Below are positions 3,626 through 62,947 of a DNA stretch of 64,000 nt, piece after piece (within the stretch, counting starts at the first letter, position 1; the number at the start of each line of letters is the position of its first letter). Source of the stretch: a candidate division Hyd24-12 bacterium UBA6080 (lineage in GTDB: Bacteria > Fermentibacterota > Fermentibacteria > Fermentibacterales > JCC-6); contig DIXM01000002.1 in assembly GCA_002436025.1 (NCBI GenBank), positions 727,164 to 791,163 on the forward strand. The letters are read 5' to 3'. Position numbers and translations under genes: made by a program. The notes below the pieces were generated by a model. It searched no databases. It worked only from the letters and a program-made list of their open reading frames with translations, and had not been told where the DNA came from.

Positions 3626-3979
3626 GGGGGCGACAGGTCTCGACGGGTACGGATGCGGTTTTGCGGGAGCATGCCGAGGTTCCGCCGGCCTCGTTAAAAA
3701 GGCGGGAACAAACAACTGCCGCGTAAGCGACAACCCGTCACCCTCCAGTTAGGGTGGCCGTCCTCTCAACCTTCGCCTTCGAGGTTGTACAGGGCGACGC
3801 AATGAAGGCTGGCCTCCATCCCCCCACCTTCCGGGGTGAAGAGGCGAGAACAATGGAGGGCATGTCCGGAGAGCGCCGTCCGTTGCCCACCTCCGGCCAA
3901 GAATGAGTACGGACTAAGCATGTAGCGCCTTCTCAGCCCCCGTGCGCGGACGCGGGTTCGAATCCCGCCGCCTCCACCA
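3626..3979 (+). ncRNA. ssrA: tmRNA (SsrA), ~354 nt
   Basis: 5' GGGGGCGACAGGTCTCGACGGG (tmRNA 5' consensus GGGGnnGAnnnnnTCGACGGG). 3' tRNA-like end GGACGCGGGTTCGAATCCCGCCGCCTCCACCA with T-arm and CCA. Acceptor stem 5' GGGGGCG pairs with 3' CGCCUCC including a G3:U wobble (alanine identity). The tag ORF is probably the frame ending ...ACAACUGCCGCGUAA (..TTAA*), uncertain. Confidence 0.9.
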
Positions 3980-4247: not shown

Positions 4248-4874
4248 ATGAGGTCGTTGCTTTTTCTGTTTGCTTCGGTGATTACCGTTTCAGCCGCAGA
4301 CATAGTCATCGGCAGCCAGGGCTCGCAGTCAAGCGATCCCTGGTGTGGTTCCTGAAGCTCTCAGATGCACTACCAGGTGGTGGTGCTCGACAGCGAGATG
4401 GGAAATGCCATGGACATTCTGTCCATTGCCTGGCAGAGGGCTGCCAGCGGCAGCAGTGAGGGTCATTATTATGGTGTTGAGATCCACATGGGGCTCTGCG
4501 CCGATGACGAGCTCGGTGCGACATTCGACGACAACTGGATTCCGGGCACCCGCACCCTTGTTTTCGCGGCGGACACACTTGACCTCAGCGGGAACGCCAA
4601 CGATTGGTCAGCTGTCACACTTGACAACCCCTTCTGGTACGGTGGTGAACAAAACCTTCTCATCGACCTTCAGTGGACCTCCGCCAATACGGCGTACAGC
4701 TTCTACACCTGGAGATGGGATACAGGTGCCGTCCGCTGCGTGAAGGCTATCAGCCTCGCCGCCCCTACTGGCGTGCTCTCTACACAGATCTCGGAATTGA
4801 TGTTCTCGGGCGATTTTTCGCTGTCCCAGAGCACATTCGGCGAGATCAAGACCGTTTTCGCCTGTGAAGATTGA
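4248..4874 (+). CDS. Secreted small protein, paralog 1, with in-frame TGA at 4353-4355 in a CGS-TGA (CxxU-like) motif: candidate selenoprotein of an uncharacterised family
   Basis: ATG 4248 with GGGAGG RBS. Signal peptide MRSLLFLFASVITVSAADIV. Same frame continues through TGA into ORF 4365-4874 (MHYQVVVLDSEMG...). The TGA position and context are conserved in two paralogs. A stem-loop lies 12 nt downstream of the TGA. Confidence 0.6.
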
Positions 4875-4884
4875 GGAACCATAC

Positions 4885-5517
4885 ATGAAAACACTTTCCA
4901 CTCTGTTGCTTCTTCTTGCAGCTGTTCCTGCAAGCGCCGCGACGGTTACCGTTGGCAGCGAGGAGCTGTCCTCCGGCGAACCACTTTGCGTATCTTGAAT
5001 CGAGTCGCTGCGCTACCAGGTGGTAGTGCTCGACTCTGAGATGGGCGGCGCGTTTGAATTCGACACCATCAGTCTCAAGAGGCACAGCTCGGGATCGACA
5101 TCCGGTCAGACCACTTTTGCCGACTTCGAGATCTGGGCGGGACTGGCTGAGTCCGATGTTCTCGGTGACAACTTCGAAGACAATTTCATCCCCGGCACCC
5201 GGACACTTCTATTCAGCCGCGAAAGCCTTCTGATTGAGGCCGAACCGAATGCCTGGATACCATTCGTACTCGATTCCCCCTTCTGGTACGGGGGAACAAA
5301 GAACCTCATCATCGAGATCCTCTGGTCCGAAGGTGAGGAACTGGGTACGGAGTGCGTCTACACATGGCAATGGAACACCGGAACCATGCGATGCGCATCC
5401 GGGCCGTACGATTCGGAAACAGGAAGCCGGACCAGCGTGATACCCCTCATTCAGTTCTCAGGGGACATGACCCTTTTGAACACCACTTTCGCCGGAGTCA
5501 AGACTTCCTTCCAGTAG
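4885..5517 (+). CDS. Secreted small protein, paralog 2, with in-frame TGA at 4996-4998 in a CVS-TGA motif: candidate selenoprotein
   Basis: ATG 4885. Signal peptide MKTLSTLLLLLAAVPASA. In-frame TGA, then IESLRYQVVVLDSEMGG... (ORF 5020-5517 in the same frame). Tandem with paralog 1. Equivalent hairpin after the TGA. Confidence 0.6.
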
Positions 5518-9544: not shown

Positions 9545-10360
9545 ATGATCGATTTCTTCCTGCAGAGCGGGCCTGTCGTTCAGGCACTTGTGGCCACCCT
9601 GTTCACCTGGGGAGTTACGGCCCTGGGCGCCGGGCTTGTTTTCTTCACCCGAACGGTCAGGGCAAGGGTCCTTGATTCGATGCTGGGGTTTGCCGCAGGC
9701 GTAATGATAGCCGCCAGTTTCTGGTCATTGCTGGCGCCCGGCATTGAAATGGCCGAACAGATGGGGCAAACGGCCTGGCTCACGGCCGTGATCGGATTCA
9801 TGGCGGGCGGGCTTTTCATGAGGCTCAGCGACCGTATCCTTCCGCACCTTCACCCGGGTATGGGAATGGAGAGCAGCGAGGGCATAAAGACGTCATGGCG
9901 GAGAAGCACGCTGCTGGTGCTGGCGATAACGCTGCACAACATCCCCGAGGGGCTTGCCGTGGGCGTTGCCTTTGGCGCGGTTTCGGCCGGTCTTCCATCA
10001 GCCACGCTGGGTGGGGCGATTGCGCTGGCCATCGGAATAGGCCTTCAGAACTTTCCCGAGGGGGCTGCCGTGTCACTGCCGCTACGGCGGGATGGGATGG
10101 GAAGGGGCAAAAGCTTCCTGGCGGGGCAGGCATCCGGTATCGTGGAACCGGTGGCGGGCGTTTGCGGCGCCGCATTCGTCCTTCACATGCAGGAGATACT
10201 GCCCTACGCACTGTGCTTTGCCGCGGGAGCAATGATCTTCGTTGTCGTGGAGGAACTCATCCCTGAATCCCAGCGTACACCGGCGAACATTGACATGGTT
10301 ACGATTACCACACTGGCCGGTTTTGCCGTGATGATGATGCTGGATGTGGCGCTGGGATGA
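9545..10360 (+). CDS. zupT: ZIP family metal (zinc) transporter
   Basis: [13 protein letters not shown] and QNFPEGAAV motifs, 8 TM helices, ~270 aa. Confidence 0.8.
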
Positions 10361-23434: not shown

Positions 23435-24846
23435 CCCATCATTACAAGCCCGGGAGTTACAGGGAGATCCTCGGCGTAGCTTTCCCGGTCATTGCCGGGA
23501 TGGCTGCCCAGACCGTGATGATGTTCTGCGACAGGATGTTCCTGGCCAGACACAGCGTATGGGAGCTTCAGGCCGCCCTTCCCGCGGGGATTCTCGCTTT
23601 CACGCTGATCTGTCTTTTTCAGGGCGCGGCGGGTTACGCCTCAACCTTCGTGAGTCAAAATCACGGGGCGGGCAACTCAAGGGGGGTGGCCGTGTCCTAC
23701 GCCCAGGGGGTGTTCATCGCCCTGTTCTCGGCTCCCCTGCTTCTGGCCCTCTCAATTCCCGGCCGGTTGATCCTCGATCTTGGCGGTCATGATCCCCATG
23801 TACTCGACCTCGAGGTCACATACTTCCGCTGGATGATGGCGGCGGGAGTGGGCGCCACGCTCAACGCCGGGGCGGCTTCCCTCTGGAGCGGCCTTGGAAG
23901 GACCACCTTCACGATGGTAGCGGGAATGGCCGGCGCTGCACTCAACATCCTTCTGGACTGGATCCTCATCTTCGGCAATCTCGGGTTCCCCGAGATGGGA
24001 ATCGAAGGGGCCGGGCTTGCCACTGCGATAAGCTCCTTCGTCCCCGGGATCATCCTCATAACACTATCTTTGAGAGGAAGGGTCTCCCGTGAGTTCCCGA
24101 TACGGGAGAACTTACGACCCAACGGTGCCCAGGTCCGGAAGACCCTGAGGTACGGGCTTCCCGCAGCTGCCAGTGTCTTCATGGATGTGGCAAGTTTCTC
24201 CGTGTTCGTCTTCCTTACCGGAAGGCTTACCCCGGTGGAGTTCACGGCAAGCAACATAGCCTTCGGCGTCAACAACCTGGCCTTTCACCCCCTGCTCGGG
24301 TTCGGCATAACCACCACTATCCTCGTGGGCCGCTACCAGGGAGGAAGGAACCCGGCAATGGCAGGAAGGGTCACGAGACGCACGCTGCTGGTGGCACTGC
24401 TGTACTTCTCTCTCATCGCAGCTACATTCCTCATCCTGCCCGGCATGTACATGACCCTTTTCCGGAGCCCCGAGACGGAAGTGCCCTTCGACCAGCTTTT
24501 GGCAACCGGAACGACTCTTTTGGCCATCCTTTGCCTGTGGGGAGGCTTCGACGCGGTGAGCCTGATGCTCGGGGGGGCGCTGAGGGGGGCGGGCGACACC
24601 AAGTTCGTGATGATCCTCTCATCGTGTCTTGGGTGGCTGTTCTGGATACCGGGCATCTTCCTCCTTTACCAGAGCCCCGGGATGAGTGTTGTCACTCTGT
24701 GGCTTTTCACGACACTTTATGTGGCCCTGCTGGCCCTCGGTTACTTTCTCCGTTACAGGAAGGGCCCCTGGAGGACGATGGTCATGGTGGAACAGGAGCC
24801 CCCGTGTCTCTCCGTACCAGTAACCGAGCCTGCAGGCAGAGGGTGA
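23431..24846 (+). CDS. MATE family efflux transporter
   Basis: 12-TM, 471 aa, typical MATE N-terminus (ILGVAFPVIAGMAAQTVMMFCDRMFLARHS). Confidence 0.75.
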   Translation: MTHHYKPGSYREILGVAFPVIAGMAAQTVMMFCDRMFLARHSVWELQAALPAGILAFTLICLFQGAAGYASTFVSQNHGAGNSRGVAVSYAQGVFIALFSAPLLLALSIPGRLILDLGGHDPHVLDLEVTYFRWMMAAGVGATLNAGAASLWSGLGRTTFTMVAGMAGAALNILLDWILIFGNLGFPEMGIEGAGLATAISSFVPGIILITLSLRGRVSREFPIRENLRPNGAQVRKTLRYGLPAAASVFMDVASFSVFVFLTGRLTPVEFTASNIAFGVNNLAFHPLLGFGITTTILVGRYQGGRNPAMAGRVTRRTLLVALLYFSLIAATFLILPGMYMTLFRSPETEVPFDQLLATGTTLLAILCLWGGFDAVSLMLGGALRGAGDTKFVMILSSCLGWLFWIPGIFLLYQSPGMSVVTLWLFTTLYVALLALGYFLRYRKGPWRTMVMVEQEPPCLSVPVTEPAGRG

Positions 24847-24903
24847 TGGAACGAAGCCGGGCTTTCCGGTGTATCTGATTCAAACCACCCTTCAGGAGGA
24901 GTT

Positions 24904-25446
24904 ATGCACCAGCTTCTATTCATGGCCATGATCGCGGGAACCGTTACAGTAGGGGAGAACGAGTATCCCCTTTCCGAGCCCCTCTGCGGGGGTTGAGGCT
25001 CGTCAACGATACACTGCCAGTTGGTGGTGCCGTCTGAAGAGCTTCCGGGTCCCTTGACCATCACGGGGTTTGCATTCCACAAAGGCCCCACGGGCGCCCG
25101 GAGCGCCACAGTATCGGAAGCGGCAGTGTTCATAGGCATCGCGGGAGGTGATGAACTGGGTCCTGAATTTCAGGCAAACAGGGTATCCCCGACCAGGGTC
25201 ATCAGCAGCGAAAGACTGACTGTCACCGCTGACGAGGACGGAATGGTGACCTTCACCTTCGATACGCCCTGGGAGTATGAGGATGGTGATATCCTCCTTG
25301 AGCTCAGGTTTGAAGGGGTATCAGGCTATCTTTACGTGTTCGGATGGACAGCGCCGGGCCGAAGGTACCTTTCAAGCGGGGATCTCACGGCTGAACGGGG
25401 TACGGTCTCGGAGAACCTGCCGGTCGTGACTCTGATAACGGAGTGA
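24904..25446 (+). CDS. Small protein, paralog 3 of the 4248/4885 family, with in-frame TGA at 24994-24996 in a CGG-TGA motif: candidate selenoprotein
   Basis: AGGAGG RBS then ATG 24904. MHQLLFMAMIAGTVTVGENEYPLSEPLCGG-TGA-GSSTIHCQLVVPSEE..., continuing in frame as ORF 25021-25446. N-terminal TVTVG..EPLC..TGA aligns with paralog 2. Hairpin after the TGA. Confidence 0.55.
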
Positions 25447-25485
25447 ACCTTCCCCGAAGGTTGCGTCCAGGATTGAAGGGGTGCC

Positions 25486-26244
25486 GTGAAGGAGTGTATC
25501 AAGAGCTCTTTAAGGAGCGCAGGGGCCTTTGACGTCGGCATCGCATCGCCCCTGGCCGGTTACGACAGGGCCGTTGCCGGTTACAGCCCCCGGGAGATAT
25601 GGCCCCCCTGCAGGTCCATAGTTGTTTTTGCGGTGGCCATGACACCCTGGTCGAACAATACGTTCGTCGGACCCCTGGCGCCCGGTGAGGGTCCGCGCCC
25701 GCTGGGTCCTGTTCCCTCCACTGTCTGTTCCGACCGCTATGCAATGAACAGGCTTGCGCGTCAGATAGCTGCTCCGGTGACTCTGGCCGCCCTTGCCTTC
25801 CTGGAACAGAGCGGTCACGCATCAAGCCTCAGGACCGTTCAGTGCAAACTGAACGGGTACCTTGCCGGACTTGGTGTTTACGGGAAGTCGGGCCTCCTGA
25901 TCCATCCGGTTCTTGGTAACAGGATGTGCCTTGGCGCTGTGATGACCGATGCGGAAATGGAGCCGGACAGCCCCCTTGTGGGCTTTGATCCATGCCGGGA
26001 TTGTTCCCTGTGCATCGATGCCTGCCCGGCGAAGGCCTTCAGCCCCGGGAAGGATTACCCCGGATCATGGTCCCGCGAAGCCTGCACGAAGAAAAGGGCC
26101 AAAATGGAGGCCAGGGGTTTCTACTGCCACACCTGTTACGCAGTTTGCCCCGCGGGAACGATCCCCGACGATGATCTTCTGAGCATCACCGAGATAAGGT
26201 CGCTTTCCCCGAAGACCACCGGGCGTCACTCCCTCCAGCGGTAA
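25486..26244 (+). CDS. 4Fe-4S dicluster domain protein (QueG/RdhA-like ferredoxin domain)
   Basis: CRDCSLCIDACP and CHTCYAVCP cluster-binding motifs. Confidence 0.5.
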   Translation: MKECIKSSLRSAGAFDVGIASPLAGYDRAVAGYSPREIWPPCRSIVVFAVAMTPWSNNTFVGPLAPGEGPRPLGPVPSTVCSDRYAMNRLARQIAAPVTLAALAFLEQSGHASSLRTVQCKLNGYLAGLGVYGKSGLLIHPVLGNRMCLGAVMTDAEMEPDSPLVGFDPCRDCSLCIDACPAKAFSPGKDYPGSWSREACTKKRAKMEARGFYCHTCYAVCPAGTIPDDDLLSITEIRSLSPKTTGRHSLQR

Positions 26245-35411: not shown

Positions 35412-36017
35412 CTATCGGTACAATGCCTTTATGGCTCCGAACGTGCTTTGCCCGAAAGAACCCGGGATATCGTAATCCACGACCAAGTTAGGGTGTTCTG
35501 AGGCCGCTTCCCGCGAGAAGAAATTCTGGTACAATCCTGAGCCGCCGGTTCCGAAGAAAACAATTCCGTAGTTGGGATAGGTCCCCTGAACCCATTCCTG
35601 AACGAGGCCCTTCACATCGAATTCGTACCATCCGTTTTCAGTAACGACGATCTGGTCGTATGAGCCCGCATCGTCGTAGGCGATGCTGTTCACCAGGACG
35701 CTCTCGCTCCATGGTTCCGTCACGCGGAAGATCTCGCACTCCAATGCGCTCCCGGGGTTGCCGTCGTATCTGAAGATGTTCAGGTATGCGGTGTTGACAA
35801 TGGCTTCCTGGGGTAGTGAAGACAGGTCGAAGCTGATAACGATCCGCTGGTCGAAGGAACTGATGTTGTTGGTCCTGAGCTGCTGACTTGACCCGAACGG
35901 CCCCTGGCCGGGCCAGATCCAGGTGTCTGCGTCGGGAAGCTGGACAATGGTCTCGGCGGAGGCCACAGCAGCGATCAGAACCGTCAACATCAAAGCCAAA
36001 GTGACGCTTCTCATCAT
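35412..36017 (-). CDS. Secreted DNRLRE-domain protein ending in the shared C-terminal motif STFGAIKALYR
   Basis: Signal peptide MMRSVTLALMLTVLIAAVASA. TIVQLPDADTWIW...GWYEFDV...SREAASEHPNLVVDY pattern consistent with the DNRLRE domain. Confidence 0.5.
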   Translation of the reverse strand: MMRSVTLALMLTVLIAAVASAETIVQLPDADTWIWPGQGPFGSSQQLRTNNISSFDQRIVISFDLSSLPQEAIVNTAYLNIFRYDGNPGSALECEIFRVTEPWSESVLVNSIAYDDAGSYDQIVVTENGWYEFDVKGLVQEWVQGTYPNYGIVFFGTGGSGLYQNFFSREAASEHPNLVVDYDIPGSFGQSTFGAIKALYR

Positions 36018-36268: not shown

Positions 36269-36961
36269 ATGAAAAACACAGTTCTGCTGCTTATCGCTCT
36301 TTCAGGGCCTGTTTGGGCGGACTTTGTCGATGACTTCCAGTCTTACCAGCCGGGACAGGGCCCTGAGTCATCCGGCAACTGGATCAGGGAGGAGAGCGGA
36401 GGCTACGCCCTGGTGACATCCCAGGGTGAGAACCAGGTGATCGAGGCTTTCTTCCCGGATTCTACCTATCTGGGATACCTTTGCTCTGCGGCGGGTTTCT
36501 GGACGGACGGGTCGGTTTCGATGGGCTTCAGCCCCGATGGCACCGGAAGCCTCGTGAATGTGCTGGCCAGGATGCAGATCACCACGGGCGAAGCCTACGT
36601 GGGAGGCGTGATCGTCTTCCTCCAGCCCTTCACCTATGCCTACATCGGCTATGTGAACACGACGGGAGACTACGAGCTTCTTTACAGCAATTTCGGTCCC
36701 ACGCTGACACCCGGGACCTGGGTCAACGTGGGTCTCACTGTAGAAAACATTGACCCGGTCGTGCTCACCCTTCACATAAACGGCCAGCAGGCCGCCCAGG
36801 TGCTTGACCCTGTGTACCGGCTGGGTTCGGGTCTCTCCGGCTTCGCGATGATCTACGAGGGCGATGTTCCCTCCATCCTCGCCGACGACTTTCAGGTCGT
36901 CCTGAGCGCACAGGCGCTTGAAACGACAACCTTTGGAGCGATCAAGGCGGTGTTCAGATGA
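36269..36961 (+). CDS. Secreted hypothetical protein ending in the shared C-terminal motif TTFGAIKAVFR
   Basis: Signal peptide MKNTVLLLIALSGPVWA. No recognised domain. C-terminal 11 aa nearly identical to the divergently transcribed DNRLRE protein. Confidence 0.45.
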   Translation: MKNTVLLLIALSGPVWADFVDDFQSYQPGQGPESSGNWIREESGGYALVTSQGENQVIEAFFPDSTYLGYLCSAAGFWTDGSVSMGFSPDGTGSLVNVLARMQITTGEAYVGGVIVFLQPFTYAYIGYVNTTGDYELLYSNFGPTLTPGTWVNVGLTVENIDPVVLTLHINGQQAAQVLDPVYRLGSGLSGFAMIYEGDVPSILADDFQVVLSAQALETTTFGAIKAVFR

Positions 36962-45654: not shown

Positions 45655-47910
45655 ATGAGAAGCATGCTTTTTGCTTTGATATGCACTTTGCCCTGCGTTG
45701 CGGGAGAGGTTCTCTACCGCAATGCGGATGCGCTTCCCGAAGCCTGCATACTGGATTCCGACGGGGGCTCCATGACGATCAGGTTTGACCTGCCTGCAAT
45801 CATCGGGTCAACCGGGGATGTTGGCGTTTTCGGTTCTGGAACGACCCTTCGTGTTCCGGGATGGGGAATTCTCGCGGAGGCTGGCTGCCCCGATCTGCCG
45901 GTGCTCAGGAAGCTGGTCATGGTCCCTAACACATGCGGGGTGAGCCTTCAGGTGATCGAGGAGACCACGACCAGCCTCGGAGTCTTCAGAATTCCCCCTT
46001 TCCAGAAGCCCGGACTGAGATCCGGCGGGACCGTTCCCTACGAACAGGACCTGGCAGTCTACGGATCGGTTGGTCCTTTCCCTTCGGGATGCGCGTTCCT
46101 TGAGGGCGTGCATGTGCTGCGGGACATAAGGGTCGCGACAGTCAGGTTCCAGCCCGTCAGGTACGATCCCCTGTCAGGCGAGGCGACGATAGTGACATCG
46201 GCCACCGTCAGGCTGACATTCGGAGGATCAGGCCAGAACGAGCTGAACCGGTCGTTCCAGGGCACGACCCCGGGTTTCATGCCTTTGTACGGCGGAGTTC
46301 TCGGGTATGAGCCCACCGGTCCGTTCCTCGCCGGCTCCTATCTGTTCATCGGAACCGATGAAAGCCTTGATGCGATCGAGCCGCTGGTCAATTGGAAAAG
46401 ACAGAGGGGCTACCGGGTGTTCCTTGGGACGGTGCCAGAGATCGGGTCAAACGCTGAGATGGTAGATAACTGGATCGAAATGGCCTTCATGAACTGGGAG
46501 TACCCGCCGGAATGGATCCTCATCGCAGGAGGAGAGGACCTGGTGCCCGTACCGCTTCACGATGGGTTCGCATCCGACAACATCTACGGAGTCATTGGAA
46601 CGGAGACAAGCGTGCCCTCCATTCACGTCGGCAGGATTACCGGATCCCTTTTGGACCTCCAGTACCAGGCATGGAAGATCCTGCAGCATGAAGCCGATCC
46701 CTTCGAGCCAGGCGAAGTGAGCTGGTTCCAGAAGGCTGTCACCATCGGGTCAAGTGATGCTCTTGATCCGCTGCACTCCTGGGAGCACACGCAGATGTTC
46801 ATGGAACACGGCATCGCCGTTGACTACTACTGCGATGATCCGATGTACGGCGGAACACCTCCATCAATCGAGGCCATTTCAGCGAACATCAATGAGGGAA
46901 GGACCATAGTCGACTACATCGGGCATGGTTGGGAGCAGGGATGGGGTACATCCGGTTTTTCGATCACTGATGTCGCCGCCCTGTCCAATGGCCGAATGCT
47001 TCCGTGGGTGTTCTCGATAGCCTGCAGCAACGCAACCTTCATGAATGGTTACTGTTTCGGCGAGGCCTGGATGACCGAGGGTGAGATGACCGAACCGCAG
47101 GGCGGCCTTGGCTTCATGGGTGCCACCACCGGGAGCCCTTTCGGCCCCACGGATTCTCTTGCAGAATACACCTGGCGCGGCTACTTCGAACTCGAAATCC
47201 ACCACATGGGCGCGGCGGTCGACTACGGCAAGCTGAAGGTCGAGGAGTTCTACGGAGTCGAGAACTATGGCAACAACTGGATGCACATGGTGTTCGGATG
47301 TCCCGAGGTCGACATATACTCCGATACTTCCCCGATCGCACTGCTGGATGCGAGCCACAGCCCCAATATCTGGAGCGGTTCCTGGCCGGTGAACGTCAGC
47401 ACGGTTGGCGGGGACCCGGTTGAGGCCGCTCTGGTCGGGGTGGTCCAGGGCGATGAGCTGCTCGGAGCAGGATACTCTGACAGCAACGGCTTCCTGCAAC
47501 TCGACATCCCCGAGCTGCCATACGGCGGCTCCATGGAGGCGATCCTCACGGTTACGGCTCACAACCTCAGGCCTTACACGGCAAACCTCGACCCCGCACC
47601 CGAGGGGTTTGAAGAGGGGGAGGGAACGGCACTCTTCCTCGCCCCGGTGCTTCCCAACCCGTTTTCGGCCATAACGTCCATCTCCTTCGGTCTGCCCGGG
47701 GCCTCTCAGTGCAACCTTTCCATCTTCGACATCTCCGGGAGACTGGTGCGTACGCTGTTCGAGGGGAGCCTCCCGGGAGGAAGTCAAAGCATTGTCTGGG
47801 ATGGACGTACCGGATCGGGAAGTTCCTGCCCGGACGGCATCTACTTCATCCGGCTGCATACTCCGAACGCGACTCTTGTGGAGAGGGCTGTGCGGCTGGG
47901 CTCAAACTAG
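45655..47910 (+). CDS. Gingipain-like cysteine peptidase (C25 family) with C-terminal T9SS/FlgD-Ig-like sorting domain
   Basis: Signal peptide MRSMLFALICTLPCVAG. YIGHGWEQGW and FSIACSNATF catalytic His/Cys context. C-terminus NPFSAITSISFGLPGASQCNLSIFDISGRLVRTLFEG...GIYFIRL matches the T9SS CTD pattern. Confidence 0.7.
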   Translation: MRSMLFALICTLPCVAGEVLYRNADALPEACILDSDGGSMTIRFDLPAIIGSTGDVGVFGSGTTLRVPGWGILAEAGCPDLPVLRKLVMVPNTCGVSLQVIEETTTSLGVFRIPPFQKPGLRSGGTVPYEQDLAVYGSVGPFPSGCAFLEGVHVLRDIRVATVRFQPVRYDPLSGEATIVTSATVRLTFGGSGQNELNRSFQGTTPGFMPLYGGVLGYEPTGPFLAGSYLFIGTDESLDAIEPLVNWKRQRGYRVFLGTVPEIGSNAEMVDNWIEMAFMNWEYPPEWILIAGGEDLVPVPLHDGFASDNIYGVIGTETSVPSIHVGRITGSLLDLQYQAWKILQHEADPFEPGEVSWFQKAVTIGSSDALDPLHSWEHTQMFMEHGIAVDYYCDDPMYGGTPPSIEAISANINEGRTIVDYIGHGWEQGWGTSGFSITDVAALSNGRMLPWVFSIACSNATFMNGYCFGEAWMTEGEMTEPQGGLGFMGATTGSPFGPTDSLAEYTWRGYFELEIHHMGAAVDYGKLKVEEFYGVENYGNNWMHMVFGCPEVDIYSDTSPIALLDASHSPNIWSGSWPVNVSTVGGDPVEAALVGVVQGDELLGAGYSDSNGFLQLDIPELPYGGSMEAILTVTAHNLRPYTANLDPAPEGFEEGEGTALFLAPVLPNPFSAITSISFGLPGASQCNLSIFDISGRLVRTLFEGSLPGGSQSIVWDGRTGSGSSCPDGIYFIRLHTPNATLVERAVRLGSN

Positions 47911-61267: not shown

Positions 61268-62947
61268 ATGAGAGCGTTGCCGTGGTTGTTCCTTCTTCCA
61301 TCACTTCTGCTCGGTCAGTGGAGCCCTGATTCCACCCAGAATCTCACGATCTGTGACCTTTCGGGTGAGCAGGTCCTTCCCAAGATAGTTCCCACTTCCG
61401 ACGGCGGGTGCTTCATCTCCTGGTTCGATACCAGGTCGGGGAGCTACTGCGTCTACCTTCAGCGGTTGGATTACCAGGGCGTTCCCCAGTTGGGGGATGA
61501 CGGTATCCTGGTGAGCGACCAGCCCCAGATGAGCTGGATCGTTGACTACTCGATGGCGGTCGACGGGTCGGACAACGCGGTTCTCGCCTTTTCGGACGAG
61601 AGGAACGGCTCGGATGAGCTGGACGTTTCGGTCTACAAGGTCAGCAGTACGGGTGAGTTCCTGTGGGGGGAGGACGGGATCTGCCTTTCGAATCCTTCCG
61701 TACCGGGGTTTGAGCCTAACCCGGTCGTCGCCGTGACGGATCAGGGCAACTGCGTGTTTGCCTGGGGAAAGTCCGAAGACACCGACTACCTGGTTTTTCA
61801 GAAGCTCTCACCCTCGGGTGAAAAGCTGTGGGGGGACTACGGTCTTGTTTTGTCGAGCGCTTCGGCAGACCTGTCCTCGCCTGCCATTGTCCCTTCGGGC
61901 CAGGACAGCGTTATCGTGCTGTGGAAAAGCTCGACCGGTTCTTACCCCATGACAGTGACCCACCTCTACGCGGACATGCTGGATGTGAACGGTGAGGGCA
62001 CATGGAGCGACTCGCCGGTTCTGGTCTACAACACCGGCACGATCACTCCGTGGACATTCCCCGGGATCATCGGGGACGGTTCCGACGGGGCCGTGTGCTT
62101 CTGGTACGATTCCCCCACCATGAATTCCTTCGACGTGTGGGTGCAGCACCTCGACAGCCAGGGCATCAACCTGTTCCCCTTCAACGGCGCCCAGGCCTCG
62201 ACTTTCTCTGCGGACAGGCTTCACATGAGCCCTTCGGCCGTCATCAACTCCGCAGGCGTGTGCTTTGCCTTCTGGGTGGAGAGCAACGCCAACCAGAACA
62301 TGTACGGTGTCTACGGCCAGAAGTTTTCTTCAACAGGGGACCGTCTGTGGACGGACAGCGGCCTTGATCTCCTCCCGCTTGGGTCCGAGCAGACGGCATT
62401 CGTGGATGCCCTGGCTGCGGGCGACGGCATCTTCGTATCCTACTTCATCAACGCGTCGAACACATCGTTCAAGGTCCTGAAGCTTGACTTCGACGGGACC
62501 GTCCTCTGGGGGCCCGTCTCCCTGTCCGCAGGAAGCCTTGGTGGCAAGGACGACCCCGTGGTCTGCCCGGGATACGATGACGGCGCGTACTACACCTGGA
62601 CCGACAACAGGGGTGACGGCGGCGTGTACGCCCAGAACATCCAGTCCGACGGAACAATGGGGCAGTACCTGGGCGTTGAGCCAGGTTCGGTCGCGGAGTA
62701 CCTGCGTGTAACCCCGAACCCCTCCCGGGGAGCGGTGAGCTTCGTACTTGGCGGATCTGCGGGAGAGACGGCCATCGTGCGGATCTACGACCTGTCCGGG
62801 CGGCTCGTAGACAGCCTTGGTACGGTCCTGGGGGCTGAGGGCGCCTCACTCTCGTGGAACAGGGCCGGTTCGGTCCCCCCCGGCGTTTACCTCGTGAGGA
62901 TGGAGAACGGTTCCAGGGTTCTTCTGTCACGGATGATCCTGCTCTAG
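61268..62947 (+). CDS. Secreted repeat protein with C-terminal T9SS/FlgD-Ig-like sorting domain
   Basis: Signal peptide MRALPWLFLLPSLLLG. CTD ...VTPNPSRGAVSFVLGGSAGETAIVRIYDLSGRLVDSL...GVYLVRMENGSRVLLSRMILL. Confidence 0.6.
   Translation: MRALPWLFLLPSLLLGQWSPDSTQNLTICDLSGEQVLPKIVPTSDGGCFISWFDTRSGSYCVYLQRLDYQGVPQLGDDGILVSDQPQMSWIVDYSMAVDGSDNAVLAFSDERNGSDELDVSVYKVSSTGEFLWGEDGICLSNPSVPGFEPNPVVAVTDQGNCVFAWGKSEDTDYLVFQKLSPSGEKLWGDYGLVLSSASADLSSPAIVPSGQDSVIVLWKSSTGSYPMTVTHLYADMLDVNGEGTWSDSPVLVYNTGTITPWTFPGIIGDGSDGAVCFWYDSPTMNSFDVWVQHLDSQGINLFPFNGAQASTFSADRLHMSPSAVINSAGVCFAFWVESNANQNMYGVYGQKFSSTGDRLWTDSGLDLLPLGSEQTAFVDALAAGDGIFVSYFINASNTSFKVLKLDFDGTVLWGPVSLSAGSLGGKDDPVVCPGYDDGAYYTWTDNRGDGGVYAQNIQSDGTMGQYLGVEPGSVAEYLRVTPNPSRGAVSFVLGGSAGETAIVRIYDLSGRLVDSLGTVLGAEGASLSWNRAGSVPPGVYLVRMENGSRVLLSRMILL

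Follow-up and report, generated by a model that had tools for sequence, protein, structure and literature searches.

An in-frame UGA gene family of Fermentibacterota very probably encodes selenoproteins on a lectin-like beta-sandwich

We analysed a stretch of 64,000 nucleotides from the candidate division Hyd24-12 bacterium UBA6080 (assembly GCA_002436025.1, contig DIXM01000002.1, positions 727,164 to 791,163 of the forward strand; from here on the window), in which a gene interrupted by an in-frame TGA, copy 3, has two paralogues, copies 1 and 2. It is very probable that copy 3 (24904-25446) is translated as one 180-residue polypeptide of a lectin-like family, and that the UGA at 24994-24996 is decoded as selenocysteine (Sec) under the direction of a bacterial selenocysteine insertion sequence (bSECIS) lying downstream of it. 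The gene keeps one frame that is coding on both sides of the TGA, the TGA is retained throughout the family, a hairpin follows the codon where it is TGA and is absent where it is TGY, natural cysteine forms make up a Cys/Sec pair with the TGA forms, and the two parts belong to one modelled fold. From these observations together we infer that the inserted residue is Sec. Fermentibacterota (Hyd24-12) are common fermenters of anaerobic digesters and sulfidic sediments, and annotation routinely mistakes selenoprotein genes for genes of truncated proteins. The features on which the argument depends are the following.

24894-24901, plus strand: Shine-Dalgarno sequence AGGAGGAG of copy 3, preceding the upstream ATG at 24904
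24904-25446, plus strand: copy 3, putative selenoprotein frame of 30 codons, Sec-TGA, 149 codons and a terminal TGA
24985-24987, plus strand: copy 3 Cys codon TGC of the CxxU motif, three codons 5' of the TGA
24994-24996, plus strand: copy 3 in-frame TGA, the proposed Sec codon, in the context EPLCGG-TGA
24995-25045, plus strand: copy 3 SECIS-like hairpin, with upper stem 25012-25018/25023-25029 and an AGUU loop at 25019-25022, 22 nt after the UGA
4248-4874, plus strand: copy 1, with signal peptide, DPWCGS-TGA (4353-4355), AGGU loop at 4375-4378 and C-terminal tail TFGEIKTVF
4885-5517, plus strand: copy 2, with EPLCVS-TGA (4996-4998), AGGU loop at 5018-5021 and C-terminal tail TFAGVKTSF

Read from the ATG at 24904, copy 3 gives MHQLLFMAMIAGTVTVGENEYPLSEPLCGG, followed by the TGA at 24994-24996, 149 in-frame codons and the stop TGA at 25444-25446. 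Copies 1 and 2 lie in tandem 20 kb upstream, and each is 26-28% identical to copy 3, with the TGA and the Cys at -3 in the same alignment columns in all three; after the TGA copy 1 reads SSQMHYQVVV and copy 2 IESLRYQVVV. A preliminary description of this DNA, made from the letters and their open reading frames (ORFs), had already assigned copy 3 to the family of copies 1 and 2, with the layout CGG-TGA at 20 kb from its paralogues, a retained Cys at -3 and no TFGxIKxxF tail. This layout proved accurate in every particular, and the tail is missing from the orthologues of copy 3 as well. These orthologues, found with identical layout in loci L002, L003, L009 and L010, keep the gene order ParA-NHL-MatE-copy 3, and they share with copy 3 an extra conserved Cys (25012-25014 in the window) that stands six residues after the Sec position, in IHCQLVV.

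The TGA is a constant feature of the family and not a peculiarity of this contig. Searching 5.8 billion proteins with a profile yielded 64 homologue clusters, all of them 102-175 residues long and covering at most 82% of the full frame; database homologues thus fall short of the frame, from which it follows that gene callers cut every one of them at the TGA, and no full-length protein of the Sec-form group was present among the 64 clusters. When the contigs of several matches were fetched, together with 11 loci from one-genome-per-species GTDB representatives, 23 distinct genes could be read on 14 Fermentibacterota contigs (Fermentibacteraceae, Hyd24-12, metagenome-assembled genomes (MAGs) of Aegiribacteria, and metagenome contigs). 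Each of the 23 has a start codon (mostly with a Shine-Dalgarno sequence), a hydrophobic leader, the Cys, the TGA and an in-frame body, arranged as a V-x-V-G strand, about ten residues, P-[FLW]-C-x-x-TGA and the body, with the motif P-F-S-C-TGA instead in two Aegiribacteria genes. All named source records are Candidatus Fermentibacteraceae, Fermentibacteria, Hyd24-12 or Aegiribacteria, so that UGA-containing orthologues occur in several lineages of the phylum.

Two further samples point the same way. The 20-nt hairpin core, used by itself to scan JGI metagenomes, matched 118 stretches, and 34 of the 83 that were read have a TGA five or six codons upstream; the N-terminal signature of the family is present in 34/34 of these and a Cys codon at the site in 0/34, the remaining read matches being unrelated genes that encode [HR]YQ[VA]VVL. 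Among members recognised by the body alone (n=21), the TGA was found in 20 of the 20 that had enough upstream sequence. It had been argued earlier that three independent nonsense mutations at one codon are very unlikely and that the TGA is hence functional. The retention on which this argument relied is confirmed, whereas the independence of the three TGAs is not, a single ancestral gene being the simplest origin; the weight of the conservation comes from its having been retained through divergence to about 25% identity.

If the TGA were a true stop, the locus would consist of a 30-codon leader ORF and a separately initiated protein of 130-141 residues, or of decaying pseudogenes, and this is how databases annotate the genes; TTG and GTG codons 9-11 codons after the TGA could serve such a reading. 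We consider it very improbable. Nei-Gojobori counts within three orthologue groups gave ratios of nonsynonymous to synonymous change (pN/pS) of 0.20-0.29 over the 15 codons that lead up to the TGA. The four codons that follow it directly, ahead of where an internal start could lie, gave 0.11-0.22, and the body gave 0.27-0.32. The low value after the TGA is not mere lack of change, because in two of the three groups synonymous divergence in the four post-TGA codons reaches 0.44-0.58. Near the TGA there is a single indel, of 3 nt, and the frame is kept in 23/23 genes. A Shine-Dalgarno sequence of GGAG type stands before the upstream ATG in most of the 23 genes, the internal TTG, GTG and ATG codons of the window copies have no Shine-Dalgarno sequence as read from the sequence, and no internal start is shared between orthologue groups among the aligned family genes.

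The codons on both sides of the TGA are thus under purifying selection in one frame. According to the preliminary description, initiation of the downstream ORF at an internal codon, with an upstream mini-ORF not translated in frame with it, would speak against a functional TGA. Initiation of this kind is opposed by the missing ribosome-binding sites and by the coding-like evolution of the four post-TGA codons, and also by the structure, as the pre-TGA peptide is an integral strand and loop in the fold modelled for a Cys homologue (see below) and the domain cannot assemble from a 30-residue peptide plus a separately initiated body.

Some uncultured lineages have reassigned TGA to a sense codon throughout the genome (table 4 or 25), and such a code would explain the open frame without any special signal. 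Stop-codon usage refutes it here, and its probability is negligible: TGA is the commonest ordinary stop, ending 21 of the 32 longest ORFs of the window, and it terminates the MatE gene directly 5' of copy 3 as well as copies 1 and 3 themselves. In addition, the genes called on the public contigs that contain the window, namely an ENA/NCBI contig of 799,009 bp, JGI TOLCLC_10000048 and Logan SRR943311_5231, are standard-code ORFs with Pfam domains. As TGA is a normal stop in this genome, any decoding of the TGAs of this family must be site-specific. Both strands of the window were scanned mechanically for a start preceded by a Shine-Dalgarno sequence, then a TGA, at least 80 open codons and a SECIS-like hairpin, and four sites were found, three of which are copies 1-3. 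The fourth, at 1127 on the minus strand, is antisense to a radical-SAM gene (955-2580) and was dismissed. The 14-nt hairpin core occurs three times in the window, compared to an expectation of 0.04.

The candidate signal for such site-specific decoding is the hairpin. In copy 3 it has a stem of 7 bp, and its predicted free energy is -7.8 kcal/mol for the stem-loop alone and -23.5 kcal/mol for the whole element. A hairpin is found in 22/22 aligned genes, with a stem of 6-8 bp, a minimum free energy (MFE) of -10 to -26 kcal/mol and a loop of AGGU, AGUU or AGGC beginning at a distance of 19 or 22 nt from the UGA; none of the 22 genes breaks any of six shared base pairs. The SECIS of the E. coli gene fdhF has a GGUC loop with G23/U24 at nearly the same position as the GGU of this family. 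In the bSECIS consensus of Zhang and Gladyshev, as given in PMC13188914, the loop is 3-9 nt and has a G in its first two positions followed by G or U, the upper stem is 4-16 bp, the distance from the UGA 16-37 nt and the MFE at most -7.5 kcal/mol. All 22 aligned genes satisfy these constraints.

The hairpin is conserved also at synonymous sites, at which change is halved within it (pS 0.24-0.30 vs 0.58-0.65). The predicted lower stems differ in sequence among the paralogue groups: AGC, a Ser codon, faces GCU in the copy 1 type, and a UCN codon pairs within GAGUCG/CGACUC in the copy 2 type. No SECIS-like hairpin lies 3' of the terminal TGA of copy 1. A terminator or attenuator was considered as another explanation for the structure and rejected, as it has no T-run and terminator scans were at chance level.

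Where the family carries sulfur in place of the proposed selenium, both the stop and the hairpin disappear. In an exhaustive hidden Markov model search of 1.84 billion representatives the family domain came up in 3,304 proteins. They include full-length ones of about 205 residues that have the same leader, strand and C-terminal tail, with PFC-x-x-C or a lone Cys instead of the TGA. Cys is invariant at the Sec column in 10/10 aligned full-length homologues. In a follow-up search there were 29 Cys-form clusters, the named ones coming from Fermentibacteraceae and Aegiribacteria. The Cys forms have TGT or TGC at this codon, and their DNA forms no hairpin at +19 to +22, the MFE being -7.4 to -8.7 kcal/mol for 52 nt; at the position of the hairpin the Cys forms encode YQTLYL, the Sec forms YQVVV. 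It seems that the SECIS imposes the Val-Val-Val codons of the Sec forms, as GUG GUN GUG would pair with CUACC.

When the Cys form P0100 was used as a tblastn query, the alignment ran through the TGA of all three window copies and placed C37 opposite the stop. Cys homologues of this type belong to the standard criteria for selenoprotein prediction. As some sulfur paralogues retain the Sec-equivalent Cys as their only one, that residue is likely to be the essential one and the other Cys auxiliary. The alignment of the three copies with database homologues, which had been suggested as a check, consequently puts the TGA in one column with Cys opposite it in the Cys forms. The earlier proposal that the TGA is functional and a candidate for Sec is borne out by its presence in every member examined, by purifying selection, by the SECIS-type hairpin and by the Cys at the aligned column.

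A second gene family gives indirect evidence on whether Sec decoding is a trait of the lineage. Directly 5' of all three Cys-form loci lies a gene for a secreted protein of about 335 residues with an FTNCG-CGPC-W motif near its N-terminus and a C-terminal domain of the type IX secretion system (T9SS). It is a distant relative of the NCBIfam family NF045500, 'Omp28-related selenoprotein' (32-42 bits against a cut-off of 200), which is listed with a UxxC motif in a 2026 review and also goes by 'hypothetical protein GOS_C'. Both Cys and TGA forms of this thioredoxin-like gene were found near members of the beta-sandwich family.

L018, 3762-4727, minus strand: TGA form, adjoining a Sec-form gene in an Aegiribacteria MAG
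L061, TGA at 9588: TGA form, 1.5 kb from a Sec-form gene
L145, 3854-4870: TGA form, TGA at 3962
L153, 2866-3873: TGA form
L022, 4912-5925; L023, 4974-5984; L024, 4944-5948: Cys forms (CGPC)

The TGA forms read FT..-TGA-G[ST]/SY-C, so that the first Cys of the CxxC has become TGA (U-x-x-C), and gene callers split them into a mini-ORF of 32-36 residues and an ORF of 289-290 residues. Their hairpin has a loop of CGGU, or GGUC in two loci, that begins 19 nt after the UGA in three clear cases; in L061 the MFE fold puts a GGAA loop nearer to the UGA, and only an alternative 5-bp hairpin derived by hand gives a UGG loop at +19. About 30 clusters of this family are split at the TGA and 38 are full-length, and the TGA-form clusters that were looked up come from samples other than that of the window. 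A Cys form stands beside a Cys form of the beta-sandwich family and a Sec form near a Sec form, which makes it appear, from gene order and codon identity, that the two families switch together between Sec and Cys. Two unrelated families of the phylum thus have TGA in place of a redox Cys, and their matching hairpin geometry, seen in the three clear cases of the second family, is the outcome expected of a shared SelB/SECIS system.

Several results weigh against decoding as Sec. The genes selA, selB, selD and that for tRNA-Sec were found neither in the window nor in 17 kb beyond it nor in about 1 Mb of fetched loci, and tblastn with E. coli SelA, SelB and SelD against the same roughly 1 Mb matched a single generic GTPase on an unrelated contig. 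ARAGORN found no tRNA in the window and no tRNA-Sec beside family members, and there are no sel genes among the public annotations around the window. Rfam gave no SECIS family in the window and 17 loci (gathering scan) or in 24800-25500 (E <= 10), the scans returning only tmRNA, tRNAs and the molybdenum cofactor (Moco) riboswitch. A covariation test of the upper stem found one compensatory pair, which was equalled in 197 of 500 shuffles; this test is uninformative because the upper stem barely varies, and the case for the hairpin therefore rests on synonymous-site conservation, on its absence from Cys forms and on the lower stems of the paralogue groups. Finally, Sec-form clusters outnumber Cys-form clusters by 64 to 29, which is unusual for selenoproteins, as Cys homologues are normally far more abundant than Sec forms (2026 review).

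It could then be that the UGA is decoded, only not as Sec, with Cys delivered by a tRNA-Sec-like tRNA-Cys and a SelB-like factor, or with Trp, Cys or Arg inserted by near-cognate read-through that the hairpin stimulates. The failure to find the Sec machinery in the sequence searched speaks for such decoding, and the open frame, the selection, the hairpin and the Cys of the homologues would look identical under it. We nevertheless regard it as unlikely: the hairpin fits a bSECIS of the SelB type in loop size, G[G/U] content and spacing, and the NF045500 relative in the same phylum carries TGA at its corresponding Cys with the same hairpin geometry. Were Cys the residue inserted, nothing would favour the retention of a costly TGA and its hairpin in at least three paralogues beside a TGY paralogue. 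Roughly as improbable, or slightly more so, is that this lineage decodes the UGAs of the family without canonical SelA and SelB. Sec is thus the residue that best accounts for the family.

The structure of the protein was modelled with AlphaFold2 (AF2), separately for the post-TGA body of copy 3 and for the natural Cys homologue P0100. The copy 3 body is a beta-sandwich with a predicted local distance difference test (pLDDT) score of 94, and P0100 is an all-beta sandwich with a pLDDT of 90. Residues 17-40 of P0100, made up of two strands, the second of them short, and the CxxC loop, are modelled within the fold at a pLDDT of 94-96, and the pre-TGA segment is for this reason taken as part of the domain. 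The last 18 or so residues of P0100, the TFGxIKxx tail, form a low-confidence helix, which in the model fits a sorting or anchoring tag. The fold is a jelly-roll beta-sandwich nearest to the carbohydrate-binding module (CBM) of acetylxylan esterase, receptor-binding domains of phage tail spikes and baseplates, PHR domains and CBM32-type modules, at 5-14% identity. Pfam and NCBIfam (20.0) found nothing significant in the three copies with U read as C, NCBIfam giving no match at E <= 1. The same domain without the Cys/Sec loop occurs as 2-14 repeats in proteins of up to 6,536 residues (P0065-P0212), among them archaeal (Thermoplasmatota) 'DNRLRE domain' proteins. The large relatives that were scanned also carry CBM96, disaggregatase, PKD and cadherin-like modules, and no Pfam family covers the repeats in the five scanned.

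Copies 1 and 2 each begin with a typical signal peptide (VSA|A and ASA|A), and their tail, [ST]TFGxIKxx[FY](R) (4833-4874 and 5485-5517), also ends unrelated secreted proteins at 35412-36017 on the minus strand and 36269-36961 on the plus strand. Because of this combination of signal peptide and shared tail, copies 1 and 2 are taken to be exported and are probably sorted or anchored as well. Possibly the tail is a C-terminal signal peculiar to this lineage, for sorting or anchoring, and differs from the T9SS domain of about 70 residues that the genome also encodes. The location of copy 3 is uncertain, since its N-terminus before the first strand (24904-24942) has only 12 hydrophobic residues, as in its orthologues, and it has no tail; this subfamily may not be exported in the way of copies 1 and 2. 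The organism appears from its genes to use T9SS-type secretion. Signs of this system in the window are a gingipain-like C25 peptidase with a FlgD_ig C-terminal domain (45655-47910, plus strand) and a 559-residue protein with a faint Por_Secre_tail (61268-62947, plus strand).

The tandem of copies 1 and 2 (junction at 4872-4887 in the window) recurs in L004, L011, L013, L014 and L015. At 3510-3513 of L004 one ATGA serves both as the end of the first gene and as the beginning of the second, an overlap suggestive of translational coupling within an operon. As to the surroundings of these genes, a tmRNA gene (3626-3979, plus strand; Rfam RF00023, 147.7 bits) lies directly 5' of the tandem in the window, and in other genomes family members adjoin tRNA-Asp or tRNA clusters (L001, L014, L016). 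Directly 3' of the tandem pair in L004 (4221-4340) and L005 (3145-3264) is a Moco/tungsten cofactor riboswitch (RF01055, 73 bits), followed by a gene of the aldehyde dehydrogenase family.

With these data a role can be proposed in conditional terms. The protein would be a CBM-type beta-sandwich of about 165 residues in which the loop between strands 1 and 2 bears C-x-x-U. In Aegiribacteria this motif is C-U, and the sulfur paralogues have C-x-x-C or a single Cys instead. The selenol would be an exposed nucleophile that pairs with the Cys at -3 (or -1) in a selenylsulfide, and would take part in redox exchange with the adjacent thioredoxin-like T9SS surface protein or bind soft metal or sulfur species. 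The likeliest role we infer is thiol/selenol redox exchange, or capture of metal or chalcogen ligands, at the cell surface, and the likely partner is the T9SS-secreted thioredoxin-like protein encoded beside family members.

Compared to known systems, recoding in this family closely resembles that of fdhF-type genes, with an in-frame UGA followed by a stem-loop whose small apical G-G/U loop stands 19-22 nt after the UGA, Cys homologues at the Sec column and a partner Cys that makes a CxxU. It differs in that the host protein belongs to no catalogued oxidoreductase family, that Sec forms are the more numerous and that the SECIS overlaps the second beta-strand, where it appears to force YQVVV. 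NF045500, too, is a selenoprotein that is secreted or lies at the surface and has a redox dipeptide motif, and its distant relative adjoins the present family with the same Sec/Cys alternation; however, its protein of about 335 residues has a thioredoxin-like N-terminal domain and a T9SS C-terminal domain, and the beta-sandwich family does not match it.

The predicted jelly-roll is shared with CBM and galactose-binding-like domains (acetylxylan esterase 7tog and 7tok, CBM32, PHR and phage domains), but identity is as low as given above, there is no Pfam or CAZy-type match, and no CxxC or CxxU loop is found in their descriptions. With the selenoproteins of the thioredoxin, glutaredoxin, peroxiredoxin, DsbA-like and AhpD-like types it has in common a CxxU, which implies a selenylsulfide redox couple, whereas its fold is all-beta and its motif lies in a strand-strand loop and not at the N-terminus of a helix. 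The 2026 review gives NCBIfam models for many of the selenoprotein families in its tables, and the present family matches none of them. In the library searched, no paper links Fermentibacter*, Hyd24-12 or Aegiribacteria with selenium biology. As judged from sequence, this is almost certainly a new selenoprotein family, found here only in Fermentibacterota, with an ordinary bacterial recoding mechanism; its unusual features are the probably exported scaffold of lectin type, the excess of Sec over Cys forms and the apparent co-switching with a thioredoxin-like neighbour.

It seems that a whole family has been cut at its Sec codon in the databases, in at least 64 clusters and in three copies within this window alone. 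The finding points to the use of selenium in Fermentibacterota and would add to the prokaryotic selenoproteome a family without a Pfam or NCBIfam model. The placing of Sec on a probably exported, lectin-like beta-sandwich, and not on an enzyme of thioredoxin type, would widen the structural contexts in which Sec is selected. Sec and Cys paralogues side by side would also provide a natural experiment in which the SECIS appears to dictate the residues of a beta-strand (YQVVV vs YQTLYL). As a tentative and rather doubtful extension, the two families could form an extracellular two-component selenoprotein system, in which the lectin fold would bear an exposed selenolate on a loop for ligand binding and be serviced by the surface thioredoxin-like U-x-x-C protein, and which could be much of the selenoproteome of the phylum. 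If this is true, the two-component system would be a functional class of selenoproteins, for surface capture or redox of metals, sulfur species or a glycan-linked substrate, outside the catalogued oxidoreductase families.

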